This document shows, piece after piece, positions 1,813 to 64,000 of a DNA stretch of 64,000 nucleotides. This DNA comes from Clostridia bacterium (lineage in GTDB: Bacteria > Bacillota > Peptococcia > DRI-13 > SV3-B141), in assembly GCA_018433015.1 (NCBI GenBank), contig JAHDSB010000027.1:46380-110379 (forward strand), in the 5' to 3' direction. How positions within the stretch are numbered: the stretch's first letter is position 1; each line of letters starts with the position of its first letter. Under the pieces are notes generated by a model that saw nothing but the letters and a program-made list of their open reading frames with translations, ran no database searches and had not been told where the DNA came from. The position numbers and the translations under genes were made by a program.

Positions 1813-1815
1813 TAA

Positions 1816-1900
1816 GAGAAACTTCCATCAGGGAATTTTTTTCCCTGATGGTTAGTTGACCCAATCGAGGATTTACTGTCCGCCCTCTTGCACAGTATGC
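1816..1900 (+). repeat. Solo copy of the hairpin-containing repeat family also found upstream of gcvT
   Basis: GAAACTT-CCATCAGGGAA-ttttt-TTCCCTGATGG-TTAGTTGACCCAATCGAGGAT...TTGCACAGT aligns by eye with the 49.2-kb unit GAAACTT-CCATCAG-gtgcttt-CTGATGG-TTAGCTGAACTAATCGGGAT...TTGCACAAGT. Confidence 0.7.
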
Positions 1901-1947
1901 AGAAACATTACGGACAGTTAATGCGCGTGACAAAGGATGATGTGAGG

Positions 1948-4148: not shown

Positions 4149-4244
4149 ATTTGCCCTTTCTTTTTTAGATGGTATTGGACAAGGTTAGGCATTATGCTAT
4201 AATAGTAATATGTCTGGCATGTAAAAAAAATAGGAGCGAAAAAC

Positions 4245-5009
4245 GTGGATAAAGTTACTCATGTTAGATATATACGAAGAAGAAAAAGGATTGCTGCACC
4301 CGTATTCGGCCTGTGGCTTTTTTTATTATTTGCTTGTCTGTTAGCTTCCTATTATTTTATTCATTCTCCTTATTTTTCTGTGCAGCAAATTAAAGTTTCT
4401 GATAATGTAAATATAACGGAAGAAGAGATAATAAAGCAGAGTGGCTTGAGTAAGGGAAATAATATTTTCAAAGTAAATTTACGAGAAGCAGCAGCTAAAA
4501 TCAATATGTTTTCTTGGATTAAAAAAGTTGAAATTAAAAGAAGACTACCTTCCACATTACTTATTCGGGTATATGAAAGGGTACCTCTAGCCTTAGTTGT
4601 GAATAATGATGAATTTATTGTTGTCGATAAAGAAGGAATATACATAAAAAAAGTGAAATACGTTAATGATATGAATCTTCCTTTGATAAGTGATGTACCT
4701 CTATCGGAAAAAGATATATGTGGTGCGAAAATCGCCGCAGAAGGACTGCATTCTGCTCTAAGTCTAATAGAATTGTTAGATAAGGAGATTTTAGAGGATG
4801 TAGCAGAAATAAGTTCATCTTCTTCTCAGAGTTTAACTTTAAAAACTATAGAAGGAATAGAGATCCGTTTTGGTGAGCCTAATGATTTAGATCGTAAAAT
4901 ACACTTGATAGAAAATTTGTTGGATGAACATAGTGAAATAATTAATAGAGAAACAGTGGAATATATTGATTTACGTTATAATACAACTCCGGTAATTCAA
5001 TTCAGATAA
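4245..5009 (+). CDS. ftsQ: Cell division protein FtsQ/DivIB (single TM plus POTRA domain)
   Basis: N-terminal basic region, then TM (VFGLWLFLLFACLLASYYFI), then a POTRA-like FSVQQIKVSDNVNITEEEI. Position is between the mur genes and ftsZ. Confidence 0.8.
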   Translation: MDKVTHVRYIRRRKRIAAPVFGLWLFLLFACLLASYYFIHSPYFSVQQIKVSDNVNITEEEIIKQSGLSKGNNIFKVNLREAAAKINMFSWIKKVEIKRRLPSTLLIRVYERVPLALVVNNDEFIVVDKEGIYIKKVKYVNDMNLPLISDVPLSEKDICGAKIAAEGLHSALSLIELLDKEILEDVAEISSSSSQSLTLKTIEGIEIRFGEPNDLDRKIHLIENLLDEHSEIINRETVEYIDLRYNTTPVIQFR

Positions 5010-5156
5010 TTAAAAAAGAAAAAAGATAAGTTAAAAAAAGGAAATATGGTATCCCTGTTGAATTAGCAATTATAAACAAAATCACGTTATTAATTGTTCG
5101 TTAATATATGCGAATAAAAGTTGAAGTAGGGATTAGAAAAAGGGGGAAATATTTTA

Positions 5157-6197
5157 ATGCTTGAGTTTGAGAATGATGTTCACCAAACTGCTCAGATAAA
5201 AGTAATAGGAGTAGGCGGGGGGGGCAGCAATGCGGTAAATAGGATGATAGAAGGCGGACTAAAAGGTGTAGATTTTATAGCAGTAAATACTGATTCTCAG
5301 GCTTTGTTTCTTTCTAAAGCGGAGTGTAAAATACAGATCGGTGCTAAGCTTACTCGTGGATTAGGGGCTGGAGCTAATCCGGAAATAGGTATGAAAGCAG
5401 CAGAAGAGAGTCGAGATGAATTAATGGCATCATTAAAAGGTGCAGATATGGTTTTTGTCACAGCAGGAATGGGAGGAGGTACGGGAACAGGTGCAGCGCC
5501 TATAGTAGCAGAAATTGCTAAGGAAGCCGGCGCTTTAACAGTAGGAGTTGTCACTAAGCCTTTCCCTTTTGAAGGGCGCAAACGTTCCAACCAAGCGGAA
5601 AGTGGTGTTGCTAATTTAAAAAGTAAGGTAGATACATTGATAGTAATACCTAATGAAAAATTATTGCAGGTTGTGGACAAACAGACGACAATAAATGATG
5701 CCTTTAAAATTGCTGATGACGTTTTACGACAAGGTGTACAAGGTATTTCTGATCTTGTTGCAGTTCCCGGTCTAATCAACTTGGACTTTGCTGACGTTAA
5801 AACTATTATGCATGAAACGGGAACAGCTTTAATGGGTATTGGTTTAGGAAGTGATGAAAATCGGGCTGCCGTAGCTGCTCGTGCGGCTATTTCTAGTCCA
5901 CTACTAGAGACTTCTATTGAAGGGGCTAGAGGAGTACTATTGAATATTACTGGAGGATCAAATCTAGGATTGTTCGAAGTAAATGAGGCTGCAGAAATTA
6001 TTGCTCAGGCTGCTGATCCTGAGGCTAATATAATCTTTGGAGCAGTTATAGATGACAGTATGGGTGATGATGTAAGGGTAACTGTAATTGCTACCGGATT
6101 TGATCAACAAAAGACAGAGGATAAAAAGGTTGAAATAGATGTTAAAAGTTTCAATACCGATGAGATAGTTATACCGGAATTTTTACGTAAAAAATAA
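5157..6197 (+). CDS. ftsZ: Cell division GTPase FtsZ
   Basis: Tubulin signature [11 protein letters not shown]-terminal [17 protein letters not shown], and a C-terminal peptide ending IPEFLRKK. Confidence 0.97.
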
Positions 6198-6279: not shown

Positions 6280-6343
6280 TGTCAAAATATACCGGAAAGA
6301 GCCGCACGATTTGACAAAAATATGGAAAAGATTGGTGTATAAT
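6280..6343 (+). promoter_or_regulatory. Candidate spoIIG-type promoter: TTGACA (6311-6316), 21-nt spacer, TATAAT (6338-6343), with 0A-box-like TGTCAAA (6280-6286)
   Basis: Read directly. The over-long spacer and the near-0A boxes (one also on the opposite strand overlapping the -35) mirror the Spo0A-dependent B. subtilis spoIIG promoter. Confidence 0.45.
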
Positions 6344-6372
6344 GATTAAGGAGTTTTTAAATAAGGCCCGAG

Positions 6373-7311
6373 GTGATTGGCTTGCAGGATAGCGGGCTTT
6401 TAGTAAAAGTATATGTAGATGTAATGTTATTAATAAACTTCATAATGGATTTTTTTATTTTATGGGCAACAGGTAAATTAACGGGGACTAAAGCTAGATG
6501 GTGCAGATTAATAGCAGGGGCATCATGTGGGGCCATCTATTCTCTAGTTATAATTCTGCCTCAAAGCCATATTTTAACTTCGTTAGCTGCTAAAATAATA
6601 TGCTCAATAGTTATGATATTATTTGCTTTTGCCCCTCTCTCGTTCCGGCTTTTTGTTCGTTCTATTGTATATCTATATATCATCTCTTTTGTAATGGGAG
6701 GTGCAGTGATTGCGGCAATATACATGACTGATAAATCTCCTACCGCTATTCAAGCCTGGAATGGTGCAGCCTTACTAACTAATAGCTTTAGCTATAAATG
6801 GCTAACGGTAGGTATTTGTGTAGCCCTTATTGTAGGGTGGGGTGGGATTAGCTACTTACGTAAGAATTGGTTGCATAACAATCTGCTCAGCACCTTAGTT
6901 ATCCATTTGCAAGGTCATGAAGTAACGATGCAGGCTCTGTTAGATACGGGAAACCAGTTGGTAGATCCTTTGACCCAACAGCCTGTTATTGTCGTAGAGA
7001 TACATACTTTAAAACATCTACTACCAGAAAAGATCCTACAGGCAATATCTGAGGAAGAATTGAATATGACAATGTTAAGTGCGCAACTGGATAAAGAGTG
7101 GACCGGGCGTTTACGGCTAATTCCTTTTAACTCTGTAGGCCGTATACACGGCCTGATGCTAGGGGTACGTCCTGATTATATTGAGGTAAAAAGCCGAGGG
7201 GGAATAATTAAAAGAGAAGATGTTATCATCGGAATAATCAATAGAAACCTCACTAAAGAAGGGAAATATCAGGCACTTCTAAATTCTCGAATAATTCAAA
7301 AAACCATGTAA
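6373..7311 (+). CDS. spoIIGA: Sigma-E processing peptidase SpoIIGA
   Basis: Polytopic membrane N-terminal half ([19 protein letters not shown]) and a C-terminal aspartic protease region ([12 protein letters not shown]). It lies immediately upstream of sigE. Confidence 0.87.
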
Positions 7312-8161: not shown

Positions 8162-8614
8162 ATGAAAATACGAAGGGCTTCATTGGCCGACACTGAGATA
8201 CTTCATGAGCTAGTGAATAAATATGCAGGGCGAGGTTTAATGTTACCAAGACCGCGCAGCATGTTGTATGAAAATATAAGAGATTTTATAGTAGTAGAAA
8301 CTGAAAAAGGCATAGTTGGAGCTGGTGCACTGCATATCATGTGGAAAGATTTGGCGGAAATTAGGGCGCTGGCCGTTCGTGAGGATATGTTTAAAAAGGG
8401 AGTGGGGCGTAAAATCGTCAATTGTTGTCTTAAGGAAGCTGAAGAACTGGGAATTCCTAAAGTGTTTACTCTAACATATCAACCTGGTTTTTTTCAAAAA
8501 ATGGGTTTTGTAGTAGTTGATAAAGAGAATATGCCCCAAAAGGTATGGAAAGAGTGTATAGATTGTCCTAAATTTCCTAATTGTGATGAAATATGTATGG
8601 AATATAGACTATAG
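8162..8614 (+). CDS. GNAT family N-acetyltransferase (amino-acid N-acetyltransferase-like)
   Basis: 150 aa. Acetyl-CoA binding motif region RALAVREDMFKKGVGRKIV is present. The C-terminal Cys cluster is CIDCPKFPNCDEIC. Confidence 0.75.
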   Translation: MKIRRASLADTEILHELVNKYAGRGLMLPRPRSMLYENIRDFIVVETEKGIVGAGALHIMWKDLAEIRALAVREDMFKKGVGRKIVNCCLKEAEELGIPKVFTLTYQPGFFQKMGFVVVDKENMPQKVWKECIDCPKFPNCDEICMEYRL

Positions 8615-32537: not shown

Positions 32538-33551
32538 ATGAGGGATAAAATGGATTTAAAGAAAGTCAGAATTATGTTAGGATTCGCATTACTTTTCCTT
32601 TTCTCTTTTTCACTTTTAGCCCCCGTTGCAAATGCCTCACTACAGCCTTCTGATCAGCAGACAGTCATGGCTAAACCTGGTGATAATAATGCGACTGTAA
32701 AAGAAATAAAGTCTATGCTTAAAGAGCAGGGCTATTTATATTTTTATGGAAATACTAATGGGTACTATTCTAGAGCAACCAAGATTGCTGTATATTTATT
32801 TCAAAGAGCCAATAGGTTACCTGCTACCGGAATAGTTGACTCTTTGACTTATCAAGTACTGAAGGATAAATGTACTTCCGCGGAACCTCAGCCAGAGCCA
32901 CAACCGACTCCTGATCCAGAACCACAACCTACACCAGAGCCAACACCTGAGCCTCAGCCAGAACCCCAACCTACACCAGAACCAACACCTGAGCCTCAGC
33001 CGGAACCCCAGCCTACACCAGAACCAACACCTGAGCCTCAGCCGGAACCCCAGCCTACACCAGAACCAACACCTGAGCCTCAGCCGGAACCCCAACCTAT
33101 TCCTGAACCAACACCTGAGCCTCAACCAGAACCTCAACCGGCTCCTGATGTGGCAGGATTATCTGCAGATGAACAGCAAATGCTAAATCTCATTAATGAA
33201 GAAAGGGCAAAGGCTGGTGTTGCACCCTTACAGGCAGATATGCGGCTGGTGCAAAGTGCTCGTAAAAAGAGTCAGGATATGATCGACAATAATTATTTCA
33301 GCCATACTTCACCTACTTTAGGTAGTTTTGCTGAGCTAATTCGCAGTACTACCGGAGGAGATTACGGATATATTGGAGAAAACTTAGCAGGTGCACCGTC
33401 TGTTGAAATAGCTCATAAAAACTTAATGAACAGTGAGGGACATCGTAAGAATATTCTTAATCCAAATTACACTCATATTGGGATAGGAGTAATTGATGGT
33501 GGACCGTACGGTAAAATGTTTACTCAACATTTTGGCGGCTTAATTAAATAA
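32538..33551 (+). CDS. Secreted protein: PG_binding_1 domain, tandem [14 protein letters not shown] repeats, CAP/SCP (YkwD-family) domain
   Basis: Signal peptide. PG-binding motif [15 protein letters not shown]...[21 protein letters not shown]. About 4.9 copies of a 14-aa Pro-rich repeat. CAP domain [21 protein letters not shown]...GHRKNIL...HIGIGV. Confidence 0.85.
32934..33140 (+). repeat. In-frame 42-nt tandem repeat (~4.9 copies) encoding [14 protein letters not shown]
   Basis: Units start at 32934, 32976, 33018, 33060 and 33102, with only synonymous or near-synonymous differences. It lies inside CDS 32538..33551. Confidence 0.9.
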
Positions 33552-48071: not shown

Positions 48072-49058
48072 TTAATCATCCAGGAGAACATTTTCTTTAT
48101 TAACGAGAAAAATGTCTCCTTTTTTATTCATTACTTGATATTGCTCTTTATTTTTGACCATGCTTTCTAGATAGTTTTCCATATCTTTTAGAATAGCCAC
48201 ATCTTCTAGCTGATTTGTTCCTGACTGTTTAAGCTTACCCGTAGCTAAAACGAAGCTTTGCCATTTATCTTGCCAGTAGTAGCTTGCTGTGATGCTTCGT
48301 TCTTTTTGTAAAATAAAGTCACTACTTTTGGGTAGTCTAACTTGTGTACTGCCAGGAGCTTCATAGTGGCTTTGTTTTCCCGTTACTTCAATTGTTTGAG
48401 AAGCACTATAGCATGCTACAGTAAGATTTTGTAATAATTTATGCCATTTGATAGGTTGGGCTTGAGGGTTTTCCCAGGTATTAAGCCAATTTATCTCCCA
48501 GTAGGAGTTTTCCGCCCATACAGCTTTTAAATTATTGTTCTGCCAGCCCCATATTTTAAGCATATGGGTTTCACAAAAAGCCCCTGTAAGCTCGTTATGG
48601 CATTCATGAGTTAAGAGGAACTCTTTACCGGAAGTAAGCTTCAGTTTTTGCAAGTTAGTTATAGGTAATAGATTATCTAAATAATATAAAAGAATATAAT
48701 GATCGTTTTGTTTTTGTAATATGGTTATTATCCCGGTGTCAGGAGACAAAGTTAGAGTCACCACAACTTCCGGTTCCTCATCAGCTAATAAGTCTGCAAA
48801 AACAAATTTAGTTTCCCAAGCCTCATCTTGAAGTGTGGGTCTAAGATATTTGAGCAATATTTTTTCCGTTTCCTTTAAAGCATCATTGACCATATCTTCA
48901 TTGTTTAGTTTTAACATGTTAATCTGGAGTTGGGGAAATACAGGTAAGGGATTACAAATAAGACCGTTGGTCTCAACAGTTTTAAAAGATTGTAAGTGCA
49001 TGTATGTAAGGAAAAGCAGAAAAAATATAAATAATTGCGTTAAAATTTTTCTAAGCAT
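48072..49058 (-). CDS. Hypothetical secreted or membrane-anchored protein
   Basis: 328-aa ORF with an N-terminal hydrophobic signal/anchor (ILTQLFIFFLLFLTY). No motif recognised. Confidence 0.5.
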   Translation of the reverse strand: MLRKILTQLFIFFLLFLTYMHLQSFKTVETNGLICNPLPVFPQLQINMLKLNNEDMVNDALKETEKILLKYLRPTLQDEAWETKFVFADLLADEEPEVVVTLTLSPDTGIITILQKQNDHYILLYYLDNLLPITNLQKLKLTSGKEFLLTHECHNELTGAFCETHMLKIWGWQNNNLKAVWAENSYWEINWLNTWENPQAQPIKWHKLLQNLTVACYSASQTIEVTGKQSHYEAPGSTQVRLPKSSDFILQKERSITASYYWQDKWQSFVLATGKLKQSGTNQLEDVAILKDMENYLESMVKNKEQYQVMNKKGDIFLVNKENVLLDD

Positions 49059-49120
49059 GATCGACCCCCATAAGAATAAAACCTTAATATATCTTATTCC
49101 AAAAGAAAATGAATATTGCT

Positions 49121-49158
49121 AACAAGATAGTCAAAGGAAACTATCTTGTTATTTTTTT
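49121..49158 (+). terminator. Canonical + strand intrinsic terminator with no + strand gene ending nearby
   Basis: AACAAGATAG-10 nt-CTATCTTGTT followed by ATTTTTTT. It lies in the 5' region of the - strand gene 48072..49058 and upstream of the gcvT repeat array. Confidence 0.55.
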
Positions 49159-49196
49159 GGGGTTATCGCATGTTAATCCCTCAAAAGGGATATATA

Positions 49197-49461
49197 TATA
49201 GTGAAACTTCCATCAGGTGCTTTCTGATGGTTAGCTGAACTAATCGGGATGTTAGCGTACGTTGCACAAGTGTTTACTTGAAAATTACGTACGAATTGCA
49301 ACGCGGTATAGTGAAACTTCCATCAGGTACTTTCTGATGGCTAGCTGAACTAATCGGGATGTTAGCGTACGTTGCACAAGTGTTTGCTTAAAAAGTACGT
49401 ACGCTTGCAACGCGGTATAGTGAAACTTCCATCAGGGTGTTTTCTGATGGTTAGCTGAACC
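49197..49461 (+). repeat. Tandem direct repeat, period 110/109 nt, 2.4 copies, each starting with a CCATCAG-N7/8-CTGATGG hairpin
   Basis: Copies start at 49201, 49311 and 49420 (GTGAAACTTCCATCAG...). Copies 1 and 2 differ at roughly 8-9 positions. Copy 3 is truncated after ~41 nt, just before the gcvT RBS and start. Confidence 0.9.
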
Positions 49462-49470
49462 AAAAGCGAG

Positions 49471-50583
49471 GTGATTTCTCTGTATAAACCCCAAAAAACA
49501 GCTTTATATGAAGAACATCTCAAGCTTGAGGCTAGTATGACGGAATTTGCCGGGTGGTATATGCCCACAAAATATCAAGGTATTGTAGATGAACATTTGG
49601 CAGTTCGTAGGGCAGCAGGGCTTTTTGATGTTTCTCACATGGGGCAAATAAAAATAGCAGGTCCGGTAGCGTTCAATTTTATTCAAAGAGTAACAACTAA
49701 TAATATCAGTAAATTGCAAGTGGGTAAGGCTCAATATAGCCTGTTATGCAACGTACAAGGAGGTATCATTGATGACATAATAATTTATCAGCTGGGTTTG
49801 GAGGAGTATATGTTTGTCGTCAATGCGGCTAATAAAGATAAAGTTTTGCAGTGGTTGCAAGATCAAAAAAATAAGGAAGAAAAGGCTGATTTACTTAACA
49901 TACAAGATGTTTCTAAAGAATTCTGTTTGTTAGCTATACAGGGACCCAGGGCGGAAGAGATTATAGCGCAGCTTACTAAGCTTGAATTAGCTAAAATTAA
50001 ATTTTTCCACTTCGCTACTGGTGAGCTGGCAGGAGTACATGTAATTTTATCGCGGACCGGTTACACGGGAGAGGATGGCTTTGAAATATTTGTAGATACT
50101 GCTAATGCTGTGCTGGTTTGGAGAAAAATATTAGAGTTTGGTAAAGGAGCAGGTCTCGTACCGGCAGGCTTGGGAGCTAGAGATACCTTGCGTTTTGAAG
50201 CAGGTCTTCCTCTCTACGGTCAGGAATTAAGGGAAGACACAACTCCTTTTGAAGCTGGTTTAACTAAATTTGTAGATATGACGAAAGCAAATTTTATAGG
50301 ACGCCCCGTTCTAGAAATGACAAGAGAACAAGGTATAAAACGTAAATTAGTAGGTTTCAGAATGGTAGATCGTGGTATACCTCGACCTGGGTATCAATTA
50401 CAATCTAAGGGAGAAATATTAGGAAAGGTGACCTCGGGAACTTTTTGCCCTTATTTAAAATATAATGCAGGAATGGGATATGTGAGGGCAGATTATGCAT
50501 ATACTGAAAATGAAATAGACGTGTTAATTCGGGGGAAAGAACTTAAGGCTACCATCATTAAAAAGCCTTTTTACAACCGTTAA
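49471..50583 (+). CDS. gcvT: Glycine cleavage system aminomethyltransferase T
   Basis: KTALYEEHLKLEASMTEFAGWYMP...FDVSHMGQI... are typical of GcvT. The GTG start abuts GAGG, so the exact start is uncertain. Confidence 0.92.
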   Translation: MISLYKPQKTALYEEHLKLEASMTEFAGWYMPTKYQGIVDEHLAVRRAAGLFDVSHMGQIKIAGPVAFNFIQRVTTNNISKLQVGKAQYSLLCNVQGGIIDDIIIYQLGLEEYMFVVNAANKDKVLQWLQDQKNKEEKADLLNIQDVSKEFCLLAIQGPRAEEIIAQLTKLELAKIKFFHFATGELAGVHVILSRTGYTGEDGFEIFVDTANAVLVWRKILEFGKGAGLVPAGLGARDTLRFEAGLPLYGQELREDTTPFEAGLTKFVDMTKANFIGRPVLEMTREQGIKRKLVGFRMVDRGIPRPGYQLQSKGEILGKVTSGTFCPYLKYNAGMGYVRADYAYTENEIDVLIRGKELKATIIKKPFYNR

Positions 50584-54416: not shown

Positions 54417-54450
54417 GACCCCCTCTTCCCTTGAGGAAGAGGGGGTCAAT
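54417..54450 (+). terminator. GC-rich hairpin after 53892..54377
   Basis: 13-bp stem GACCCCCTCTTCC / GGAAGAGGGGGTC with a 5-nt loop and a weak T tail. Confidence 0.55.
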
Positions 54451-54629
54451 TTACATTAAAAGTTCAAATTTGTTTAACTATGAAGTAAGGGGGATATGGT
54501 TATTAAGAATAACATCAACTAAGGTAAGTTTCACTTTATGTAAGGAACTGTGATATAATATCTAATTATGGTAACTTTCTTTAATATAACTTAAAGTAAA
54601 ATATAAAAAAGCTTAGGAGGTAAAGGAAC

Positions 54630-56335: not shown

Positions 56336-56373
56336 AAAAAAGATGTTGAGATTTTTCTCAACATCTTTTTTTT
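56336..56373 (+). terminator. Intrinsic terminator after the UPF0210 gene
   Basis: AGATGTTGAGA-tttt-TCTCAACATCT flanked by an A-run and a T-run. Confidence 0.8.
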
Positions 56374-56428
56374 ATGGGTTAACCTGCTTAAAAATGGATA
56401 AATTAAAGTTAGTTATGGAGGGATTATT

Positions 56429-61987: not shown

Positions 61988-62153
61988 TAAAAATCCTCCC
62001 ATATTTCTCATAATTAAAGTTACTGATAACAATATTATTAATCATACCATTTTAGGCCTGCAAGTGAAACTTCTATCATAGAAGTCATAAGTCATTTTTA
62101 GCCAGGAAGGGGAATAAATATTTTAATAAAACTTGTAGCGGGAGGCTTACTTA

Positions 62154-64000
62154 ATGGACAAAAACACCTGGCATGAAATGGCGAGTGAAGAGATATTAGC
62201 ATATATGAAGGTTGATGAACAGAAAGGATTAGACTCTAAAGAAGCGGAGCGGAGATTAACTTTAGTTGGTGCTAATACTTTACAAGAACAGCAAAAGGTA
62301 GCACCTATTAAATTATTTCTTGCTCAATTTTCTGATTTCATGGTTTTAGTTTTAATAGGGGCAGCCTTAATATCTCTTGTACTAGAAGAATATGCTGATG
62401 CCATAACAATACTAGCCATTGTTATCTTAAATTCATTTTTAGGATTTATCCAAGAATATAAAGCAGAAAAGTCTTTGCAAGCTTTACGGAAGATTATTGC
62501 CCCAGAGGCTAAAGTAAGGAGAGAAGGTAAGCACTGCAAAATAGCTGCAGATAAAATAGTCCCGGGAGATATTGTAATCCTGGAAACTGGTGATATAGTA
62601 CCTGCCGATGCTCGCTTATTGACAACAAGCCAATTAGAAGTTAATGAAGCTACCTTGACGGGAGAGTCACTACCTGTCAAAAAGAATGTAGCGGACCTTT
62701 ATCCTGCAGAAACAGCCTTAGGAGATAGAAAAAACATGGTCTATATGGGTACGGTTGTATCCCGGGGTAAAGGTATGGGGGTAGTCGCAGATACGGGCAT
62801 GTGTACAGAAATGGGACAGATCGCCCAGTACATTCAACAAGTTAAAGAACAAGTCACACCACTACAAAAACGTTTAGCTCAGTTAGGAAAATGGCTAGTC
62901 CTTTTATGTTTAGCAATTGTAGGTGCTGTTGTAGCTACGGGTATTTTACGGGGAGAACCTGCTTATAATATGTTTTTGACAGGTGTGAGTTTGGCCGTGG
63001 CGGCGATTCCCGAAGGATTGCCGGCTATAGTAACTGTGGCTCTAGCTATCGGGGTACAAAAAATGGTAAAAGTTGAAGCCATAGTAAGATCTTTACCTGC
63101 CGTGGAAACATTGGGTTGTGCTACAGTAATTTGTTCAGATAAAACAGGAACATTGACCCAAAATGAGATGACTACCAGGCAATTATATCTGGCCGGTGAT
63201 TATGTATATTTTAGCGGAGAAGGCTATAATCCCCAAGGAAACCTCCAATATCCTGAGGATGAAGGGTGGGAGATTAAAAATAAGCAGGGCTTAGAAAAAG
63301 CCTTAATGATAGCGGCTTTATGTAATAATGCCATTTTACAAAAAGATGATATACAGATCAGGGGATTATTGCGCAAAAACAAAGATAATATCTGGAATAT
63401 AATAGGAGATCCCACAGAAGGAGCTTTATTAGTTGCGGCAGCTAAAGGAAATAGCTGGAGGGAAACTTTGGAACAAGCACAACAGCGAATATATGAGATA
63501 CCTTTTGATTCTGAGAGAAAAAGAATGAGTACTATTTATCAGGAAAATAGTACAGGTGATCTAACCTTATATTGCAAAGGTGCTCCAGATTTTATTTTGG
63601 ATTCCTGTACCCACATCTGGTGGAATGGAAAAATAGTATCTTTAACAAAAGATCTTAAAGAGCAAGTGGTGCAAGCTAATGCACATATGGCATCTAAAGC
63701 CTTACGTGTATTGGGCTTAGCTTTTCGTCAGATGCCTAAGTCTCAGAGTTTAGAGGATGAAAAGAAATTAGAAGAGGAACTTATCTTTATTGCTCTGGCA
63801 GGAATAAACGATCCGCCTCGGGCCACCGCTAAAGAGGCCGTTAAGCTGTGTAAAAGAGCGGGGATTAAAACTGTAATGATCACAGGTGACCACAAGAATA
63901 CAGCTGAAGCCGTTGCTAAAGAATTAAATATAATAGCTCATAAAGAACAGCAAGTTATAACAGGACAGGAGTTAGATGAACTCAATGATTACCGTTTACA
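62154..64000 (+). CDS. P-type Ca2+/cation-transporting ATPase (P2 type), N-terminal ~615 aa; continues beyond the window
   Basis: I translated this by hand, as it is not in the ORF track (no stop in the window). N-terminus MDKNTWHEMASEEILAYMKVDEQKGL, then TGES, the phosphorylation motif ICSDKTGTLTQNEMT, and KGAP. Confidence 0.88.
   Translation, partial: MDKNTWHEMASEEILAYMKVDEQKGLDSKEAERRLTLVGANTLQEQQKVAPIKLFLAQFSDFMVLVLIGAALISLVLEEYADAITILAIVILNSFLGFIQEYKAEKSLQALRKIIAPEAKVRREGKHCKIAADKIVPGDIVILETGDIVPADARLLTTSQLEVNEATLTGESLPVKKNVADLYPAETALGDRKNMVYMGTVVSRGKGMGVVADTGMCTEMGQIAQYIQQVKEQVTPLQKRLAQLGKWLVLLCLAIVGAVVATGILRGEPAYNMFLTGVSLAVAAIPEGLPAIVTVALAIGVQKMVKVEAIVRSLPAVETLGCATVICSDKTGTLTQNEMTTRQLYLAGDYVYFSGEGYNPQGNLQYPEDEGWEIKNKQGLEKALMIAALCNNAILQKDDIQIRGLLRKNKDNIWNIIGDPTEGALLVAAAKGNSWRETLEQAQQRIYEIPFDSERKRMSTIYQENSTGDLTLYCKGAPDFILDSCTHIWWNGKIVSLTKDLKEQVVQANAHMASKALRVLGLAFRQMPKSQSLEDEKKLEEELIFIALAGINDPPRATAKEAVKLCKRAGIKTVMITGDHKNTAEAVAKELNIIAHKEQQVITGQELDELNDYRL

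Follow-up and report, generated by a model that had tools for sequence, protein, structure and literature searches.

A tandem array in the gcvT leader of a Clostridia bacterium as a probable member of the bcr1-like interspersed repeats

The leader of gcvT is the classic position of a tandem glycine riboswitch. In a 64-kb stretch of DNA from a Clostridia bacterium (contig JAHDSB010000027.1; here called the window), the leader holds a structured tandem repeat, with gcvT, gcvH, gcvPA, and gcvPB (identified by Pfam) directly 3' of it. An earlier note, made from the sequence alone, raised the question of whether this repeat is a new cis-regulatory RNA, an array of protein-binding hairpins, or a recently amplified repeat that took the place of the riboswitch. 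We report here that the array very probably consists of two complete copies and one hairpin-only copy of a selfish interspersed repeat, noncoding and nonautonomous, from the bcr1 family. Annotators are thereby spared an attractive false positive, since the structured repeat at this classic riboswitch position turns out to be mobile.

Architecture and family identity of the array

Tandem Repeats Finder (TRF) placed the array at 49197-49460, with a period of 110, 2.4 copies, 92% matches, and a score of 461, as the earlier note had described it. The three copy starts that it gave (49201, 49311, and 49420) each carry GTGAAAC, and the first hairpin (P1) has the same 7-bp stem, CCATCAG/CTGATGG, in all three copies, with loops gtgcttt, gtacttt, and ggtgtttt. 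By blastn, units 1 and 2 share 93.6% identity, and they differ at ~7 positions; copy 2 has CTGATGGCTAG in place of TTAG. From 5' to 3', a full unit consists of the junction TATAGT, GAAACTT, P1, TTAGCTGAAC, CTAATCGGG, the second hairpin (P2), and the tail TTGCAACGCGG. The P2 of the gcvT units, (A)GCGTACGT/ACGTACG(CT), lies within the minimum-free-energy fold; single units fold as two hairpins (z-scores, -2.8 and -3.4), and 0.00 occurrences of the P1 hairpin pattern were expected in shuffled window sequence. The third copy is indeed truncated at the start of gcvT: it ends ~5 nt 5' of the GAGGTG Shine-Dalgarno/start region, and its P1 sits ~17 nt upstream of that region (Table 1).

The P1 signature, GAAACTTCCATCAG-N(4-24)-CTGATGG, was searched for as an exact pattern in one genome per species and occurred in at least 120 genomic stretches from ~20 genera of Bacillaceae and one uncultured Clostridium metagenome-assembled genome (MAG). 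Hosts included the B. cereus group, B. pseudomycoides, B. cytotoxicus, B. rhizoplanae, Cytobacillus, Peribacillus, Metabacillus, Niallia, Neobacillus, Salinibacillus, Terrilactibacillus, and Priestia, and many of these genomes carried multiple copies on both strands. The common element at the Bacillaceae loci is ~155 bp long, and copies of 120 to 130 bp also occur. The first half of its consensus reads ATAAAGT-GAAACTTCCATCAG(stem extension and loop)CTGATGG-TTAGTTGAACCAATCGGGCTTTTAC, and the second half reads GGGCAG..CCCCCACC..loop..GGTGGGGG..CTGCCC-GTTAATGCGGGATAAAGT. Published B. anthracis Bcr1 members (supplement of PMC2267715), which read ATAAAGTGAAACTTTAATCAG... and ACTGATTATTAGTTGAACCAATCGGACTTTTATGGGCAG...GGTGGGGGTCTTACTGCCCATTAAAGCGGGATAAAA, represent this same element and have the P1 pairs TA/TA in place of CC/GG. 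When 12 of these published sequences were combined into a profile, it gave 167 matches across 99 fetched loci.

The window copies were placed in this family by a profile of 54 Bacillaceae copies, which matched the two full units, the terminal hairpin, and the related solo copy 5' of murB that the earlier note had also picked out (E values in Table 1). Over the 5' end, P1, and linker, the window copies are 72 to 80% identical to the Bacillaceae consensus. Published accounts describe bcr1 as a MITE-like (miniature inverted-repeat transposable element-like) repeat of ~155 bp that is flanked by TTTAT and has two independent stem-loops with compensatory changes; it is transcribed, often within untranslated regions (UTRs), is present at 11 to 130 copies per genome, and has been suggested to move by a "site-specific recombination-like" process at TTTAT (PMC3184786, PMC6542083, PMC3446304). 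The primary work (Okstad 2004, Klevan 2007, Kristoffersen 2011) is used here as those three papers relay it.

The window element resembles bcr1 in being noncoding, in having two compensated stem-loops, and in its 5' terminus (A)TAAAGTGAAAC, its P1, its linker TTAGTTGAACCAATCGG, and its tail GTTAATGCGGGATAAA. It is likewise present in many dispersed, strain-variable copies, occupies UTR and operon-intergenic settings, and may insert beside TTTAT; bcr1 occurs on both chromosomes and plasmids. The differences lie in the host, a deep-branching Clostridia-like firmicute whose GcvT is at most 54% identical to that of any named organism (best, Thermanaerosceptrum), in the units, which are 110 to 123 bp long with a short, divergent P2 and a TATAGT junction, and in the formation of head-to-tail arrays that end in a P1-only module. 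Because the signature extends to ~20 Bacillaceae genera and a Clostridium MAG, we recognize a wider superfamily and file the window element as bcr1-like rather than as bcr1 proper. A generic unit of this superfamily could be written as [TA(A/T)AGT]-GAAAC-P1-TTAGYTGAAC-CYAATCGRG-P2-tail. Although bcr1 has been published as a repeat specific to the B. cereus group, it is thus part of a far broader family, with members in many genera of Bacillaceae and in Clostridia-like lineages. No Rfam model covers this family: canonical Bacillaceae copies at five loci (L039, L047, L009, L065, and L078) had no Rfam match. A text search of the literature for the P1 string returned no match.

We aligned 74 nonredundant copies and specified P1, the outer P2 stem, and the inner P2 stem by hand. 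RNAalifold recovered only P1 from this alignment because the P2 apex aligns poorly, and the P2 pairs were hence set by hand and counted. Across the 74 copies, 87% of cells were paired, compared with 34 to 48% when the partners were slid by 1 to 3 columns; double-sided changes were seen in 26 of the 32 pairs, and 0 of 500 shuffles reached the observed values. In P2, the consensus ACGGGCAG/CTGCCCGT is replaced by ACTGTCCG/CGGACAGT in the solo copy and by AGCGTACG/CGTACGCT in the gcvT units, and in the window copies three P2 pairs have both partners substituted compared with the consensus. Compensatory changes preserve the two hairpins. In a strand test, mismatches of the G-U (107) and A-C (131) types were about equally frequent, and thus nothing indicates selection for one transcribed RNA strand. 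The single-stranded flanks of P1 (AAGTGAAACTT, TTAGTTGAAC, and CAATCGG) are near-invariant across genera and more conserved than the stems. The mutually exclusive pairings pointed out in the earlier note are present insofar as CGTTGCA can pair with TGCAACG, but this pairing is found in gcvT-type units only and is conserved in no other member; it reflects self-complementary ACGT/TGCA motifs and is no evidence of a switch.

Members of the family are scattered over the genomes that carry them. The 255 profile matches in the fetched loci showed no orientation bias relative to the nearest open reading frames (ORFs): 53 lay in sense/sense and 50 in antisense/antisense settings, 52 in divergent spacers, and 36 in convergent spacers. 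Plasmid copies were intergenic, on B. cereus-group replicons with no informative annotation. Head-to-tail arrays, often of the form "full unit plus terminal P1-only," were found at about a dozen loci besides those of the window strains. The largest comprises 7 near-identical units with a 117-bp period (L078, positions 919-1745, in the uncultured Clostridium MAG CAZVBE010000017.1, outside the Bacillaceae) and lies upstream of an ORF resembling CDP-alcohol phosphatidyltransferase.

Linked mobility genes were sought in three ways. All-against-all clustering of the 782 ORFs in 120 loci grouped only ABC-transporter paralogues; it revealed no linked transposase and no protein family that recurs beside the copies. 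Where the 5' and 3' halves of a copy are split by 2 to 4 kb, they enclose ordinary host genes (PspA, DUF350, a chromate transporter, and a histidine kinase), and shorter gaps within split copies are nested noncoding modules. The P1 pattern had 0 matches in 2.9 million viral contigs. The nested modules, 70 to 360 bp long, are present in many Bacillaceae bcr1 copies and make them mosaic, modular repeats; nesting favors two positions, just 3' of P1 (model position ~57-65) and at the P2 apex (~105), as in L001 (3171-3450), L003 (2614-2821), L045 (4542-4930), and L093 (3096-3418).

Several observations weigh against the assignment of the array to the bcr1 family as a mobile repeat. Taken alone, the published B. 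anthracis fragments, which do not include the 5' arm of P1, match the window marginally (E = 0.01-0.14), and the homology of the window copies to bcr1 therefore rests on the intermediate Bacillaceae copies; we regard it as transitive but strong. The P2 and tail of the window copies are only 42 to 53% identical to the Bacillaceae consensus, and their lengths (110 bp for the units and ~123 bp for the solo copy) fall short of the canonical ~155 bp, a shortfall due to a shorter P2 apex. The junction motif in the window is TATAG(T), not ATAAAG(T), and bcr1 has been described as confined to the B. cereus group (PMC3184786, PMC6542083). The copies counted in the host genome are those of the 64-kb window, where both intact loci have the same orientation as the gene that follows them. 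All three strain alleles described below share the terminal P1 beside the ribosome-binding site and no other part, and no mobilizing enzyme was found in flanking ORFs, split copies, or viral contigs.

Other classes of bacterial repeats invite comparison. BOX elements of Streptococcus pneumoniae and the BIME/REP elements of enterobacteria are modular hairpin intergenic repeats that vary in tandem number among strains, are located in UTRs, and can incidentally alter the expression of neighboring genes. REPs measure 20 to 40 bp, and REP-associated tyrosine transposases (RAYTs) are their proposed mobilizers. Neither class has any sequence relationship to the window element (BOX elements are cited in PMC3184786). 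A CRISPR-like array was ruled out, in that the 110-nt period consists of homologous units with no unique spacers and the members are dispersed. A classical MITE was also rejected: the ends, ATAAAGTGAAAC... and ...GCGGGATAAAGT, are direct and not inverted repeats, and the 120 loci held no related insertion sequence.

Strain alleles, insertion target, and the glycine riboswitch

We compared alleles between identical flanks in contigs whose GcvT belongs to the same 90% cluster. Allele A, with two full units and the terminal P1, is carried by the window and by two NCBI MAGs, GCA_022838045.1 and GCA_018434615.1 (L122 and L130). Allele B has the terminal P1 only (L121 and L131, from ERR14940445 and ERR14940450). 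Allele C (L133, from SRR32481345) has one full unit of a different subtype, the P2 of which is ACTGTCCG/CGGACAGT as in the murB copy, followed by a terminal P1 with a different loop. The loop-and-tail combination of allele B is absent from allele A, and B is therefore not a k-mer collapse of A; unequal recombination among P1 modules could connect the two. Such recombination does not account for allele C, and this points to an independent insertion or replacement at the exact TATAGT junction. The gcvT site, where two subtypes appear to have been inserted independently at one junction, is a natural experiment that could help to identify the mobilizing enzyme and its target rule.

A sister species (L124), with a GcvT 75% identical to that of the window, has copies on the minus strand in two spacers, gcvT-gcvH and DUF711-DUF5665, and both sites are empty in the window. 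With a slash at each junction, the empty window site (56340-56400) reads ...CATCTTTTTTTTAT/GGGTTAACC..., and the site filled by a minus-strand copy in the sister species (8190-8385) reads ...TTTTTTTAT/CCTGGTGCAAC...GTTTCAC/TTTTT.... The insertion lies directly after TTTAT, at the end of the T-run of the DUF711 gene's terminator, and TTTAT is the published target of bcr1. The gcvT units are bounded on both sides by TATAGT, and the solo copy ends in AATAAGA and GACAAAGG; these motifs are related, albeit not identical, to TTTAT/ATAAA. The gcvT-leader site of the sister species retains no more than a decayed remnant, ATAAAGTAAAACTAACCATTAG.

In line with the earlier note, which could not find its conserved cores, the leader holds no glycine riboswitch. 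No Rfam family reached its gathering score anywhere in the 64-kb window (no tRNA, riboswitch, or leader), despite many operons, and the glycine aptamer (RF00504) was not found at E<=10 in 48950-49600, where only spurious weak matches (StyR-143, ctRNA, and similar) appeared. Like this riboswitch, the array consists of tandem structured units in the gcvT leader; it differs in that its units, which are 92% identical to one another, belong to a mobile repeat family and have no covariance-model match. The gene order around gcvT is conserved in relatives (an HI0933-like gene, an unknown 330-amino-acid [aa] gene on the opposite strand, and gcvT-H-PA-PB), whose leaders were compared as the earlier note had proposed. 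Thermanaerosceptrum fracticalcis (CP045798.1; GcvT 54% identical; L125) has a tandem glycine riboswitch at 2616-2803 (RF00504, 53.8 + 41.8 bits) in its syntenic gcvT leader, a match that served as the positive control for the search. No glycine riboswitch was found in the short leaders of two further relatives (L126 and L128), in the sister species, or in the two array-less strains that carry allele B. Control of gcvT by this riboswitch is thus unevenly distributed across syntenic relatives.

Given that the array-less strains and the sister species also have no riboswitch, nothing supports a "replacement" of the riboswitch by the array. The suggestion of an amplified repeat that replaced the riboswitch thus holds for the amplification and is unsupported for the replacement: the absence of the riboswitch here is independent of the array, and it is probably older.

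Proposed origin of the array and alternative roles

We propose that the site 5' of the resident P1, before the gcvT ribosome-binding site, is a hot spot of insertion and recombination. New units would enter at the TATAGT junction, an instance of the motif TA(A/T)AG(T). Because this motif precedes every P1, a resident P1 would offer a new target, and P1-cassette-P1 arrays would build up; unequal recombination between the ~50-bp P1 modules would then add or remove units, giving arrays such as P1-cassette-P1-cassette-P1. The mobilizing enzyme presumably acts in trans. The array itself is probably a passenger in the gcvT 5' UTR, and a passive one that would at most alter mRNA stability or translation and would not sense glycine.

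More tentatively, and as a possibility that we do not favor strongly, bcr1-like elements may be a Firmicutes-wide class, from Bacillaceae to Clostridia, of hairpin-guided cassettes with site-specific insertion, in which the near-invariant P1 plus TA(A/T)AG would serve as the recombination site of an enzyme acting in trans, perhaps a single-strand transposase of the HUH/Y1 type or a site-specific recombinase, and cassettes would land next to a resident P1. On its opposite strand, the element shows a subterminal hairpin ~10 nt inside each end, lacks terminal inverted repeats, and lies 3' of a TTTAT that also ends the element, a layout that we take to recall the single-strand HUH arrangement of IS200/IS605 (PATEs). 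It differs from IS200/IS605 derivatives in that no Y1 transposase or TnpB gene lies beside or inside any copy examined. If cassettes of this class exist, the gcvT leader with its three natural alleles would be a tractable landing pad for enzyme discovery.

An alternative hypothesis is that the terminal P1, perhaps together with the rest of the array, now serves as an exapted 5'-UTR element and tunes gcvT mRNA stability or translation without a ligand. UTR-embedded intergenic repeats of bacteria can take such tuning roles. The terminal P1 is kept in all three alleles close to the GAGGTG region, no terminator-like site interrupts the array, making read-through possible, and the sense-oriented murB copy, with its 3' end GTTAATGCGCGTGACAAAGG adjoining the murB ribosome-binding site, is identical in all six strain contigs examined; in addition, transcripts of B. 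cereus often include Bcr repeats in their UTRs (PMC3446304). However, the sister species retains only the decayed remnant at the gcvT site, unit number and type vary freely among strains, and mRNA decay rate in B. cereus was correlated with bcr3 only and not with bcr1 (PMC3446304), and we consider exaptation unlikely. Recognition by a host protein, such as a nucleoid or recombination protein that binds the hairpins as DNA or RNA and uses the array as an operator or insulator of gcvT, would account for the near-invariant P1 flanks, but the element's own mobilizing enzyme is a more economical candidate for their reader. An operator specific to gcvT is also at odds with the dispersal, lack of orientation bias, and strain polymorphism of the repeat, no regulator gene is linked to it, and the divergent neighbor has no Pfam domain; this explanation is improbable.

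The proposal of a new ligand-responsive RNA, in which the units would act as aptamers and the alternative pairings as the switch of a functional replacement for the tandem glycine riboswitch, has in its favor the sense orientation in a gcvT leader, stable hairpins with covariation support, and the presence of the riboswitch at the syntenic gcvT of T. fracticalcis and its absence here. This reading is already largely refuted, and we give it very little probability. The unit is a generic repeat: it occurs at hundreds of unrelated loci in both orientations, among them murC-murB, the antisense position 54418-54540 of the window, and the two spacers of the sister species, an outcome that the earlier note had itself named as a refutation and that also counts against a gcvT-specific protein-binding array. 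Strains carry 0, 1 (of a different subtype), or 2 full units, leaders with neither riboswitch nor array exist (L121, L124, L126, and L128), the alternative pairing is unconserved, and G-U and A-C mismatches show no asymmetry. That the tandem array is an assembly artifact, arising from repeat collapse or expansion, might be suspected from the several short-read Logan contigs that break inside it (L123, L132, L134, and L135). The identical 2.4-copy sequence in the two independent MAG assemblies with allele A excludes such an error for practical purposes, and the units differ from each other and alleles B and C hold k-mers absent from A; the odds of an artifact are thus close to negligible.

Other copies and neighboring features in the window

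Three credible family loci lie within the 64 kb: the gcvT array, the solo copy between murC and murB, and a decayed copy that is antisense to both flanking plus-strand genes. An ortholog of the decayed copy, itself decayed, is found at a syntenic position in the sister species (6281-6380, minus strand, E=1.6e-4). The possible remnant at 62062-62079 matches the first 12 nt of the element and is either a remnant or a chance match; it lies upstream of an ORF that starts near 62155, the N terminus of which, judged by eye, may be that of a P-type ATPase.

Table 1. Copies of the bcr1-like element in the window and the gene next to the array
Feature	Position	Strand	Composition or context	Evidence
Full unit 1	49197..49306	+	P1 49210-49230; linker TTAGCTGAACTAATCGGG; P2 49255-49293; tail TTGCAACGCGG	TRF, sequence, fold, family profile E=8e-14
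Full unit 2	49307..49416	+	P1 49320-49340; P2 49364-49405, 9 bp AGCGTACGT/ACGTACGCT	TRF, sequence, fold, family profile E=7e-13
Terminal partial unit	49417..49463	+	TATAGT + P1 only (49429-49450) + TTAGCTGAACC	Sequence, strain alleles, family profile E=4e-9
gcvT, first gene of gcvT-gcvH-gcvPA-gcvPB	49471..50583	+	Context, outside element	Pfam GCV_T 9.8e-96
Solo full-length copy between murC and murB	1813..1935	+	P1 1825-1851; P2 1875-1918 (ACTGTCCG/CGGACAGT)	nhmmer E ~1e-6 (array unit as query, 1814-1927); family profile E=2.6e-15 (model positions 5-152 of 159)
Decayed copy	54418..54540	-	5' end ATAAAGTGAAACTT intact, P1 eroded	nhmmer E=0.006
Possible 5'-end remnant AAGTGAAACTTCTATCAT	62062..62079	+		nhmmer E=0.06-0.5; blastn-short E=0.13-0.3; weak

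The start of gcvT is ambiguous. A strong Shine-Dalgarno sequence, GAGGTGA, overlaps the called GTG at 49471 (window positions 49468-49483), and the codon at ideal spacing from it is CTG in the window and TTG in the sister species. Some gene callers place the start 22 codons further downstream, giving a 348-aa product. In the sister species, gcvPB (4214-5649) is called as two pieces of 157 and 272 aa, which may reflect either a frameshift or pseudogene or an error of short-read assembly.

A promoter scan found no plus-strand sigma-70-like promoter in the gcvT leader. A perfect 12-bp hairpin at 49120-49158 (plus strand), TAACAAGATAGT-loop-ACTATCTTGTTA followed by T7, has the look of an intrinsic terminator. 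It lies in the divergent spacer 5' of the array, with no plus-strand gene before it, and is kept in the sister species (~1084-1125) with one compensatory pair and one wobble. It may act as a gcvT attenuator or leader, or it may mark where a small RNA ends. The N terminus of the divergent neighbor, translated by eye, resembles what we take to be a signal peptide. Elsewhere in the window, a 42-bp tandem repeat at 32916-33139 (plus strand; 5.3 copies, 93% matches) may, as judged by eye, be a coding repeat rich in proline and glutamate.

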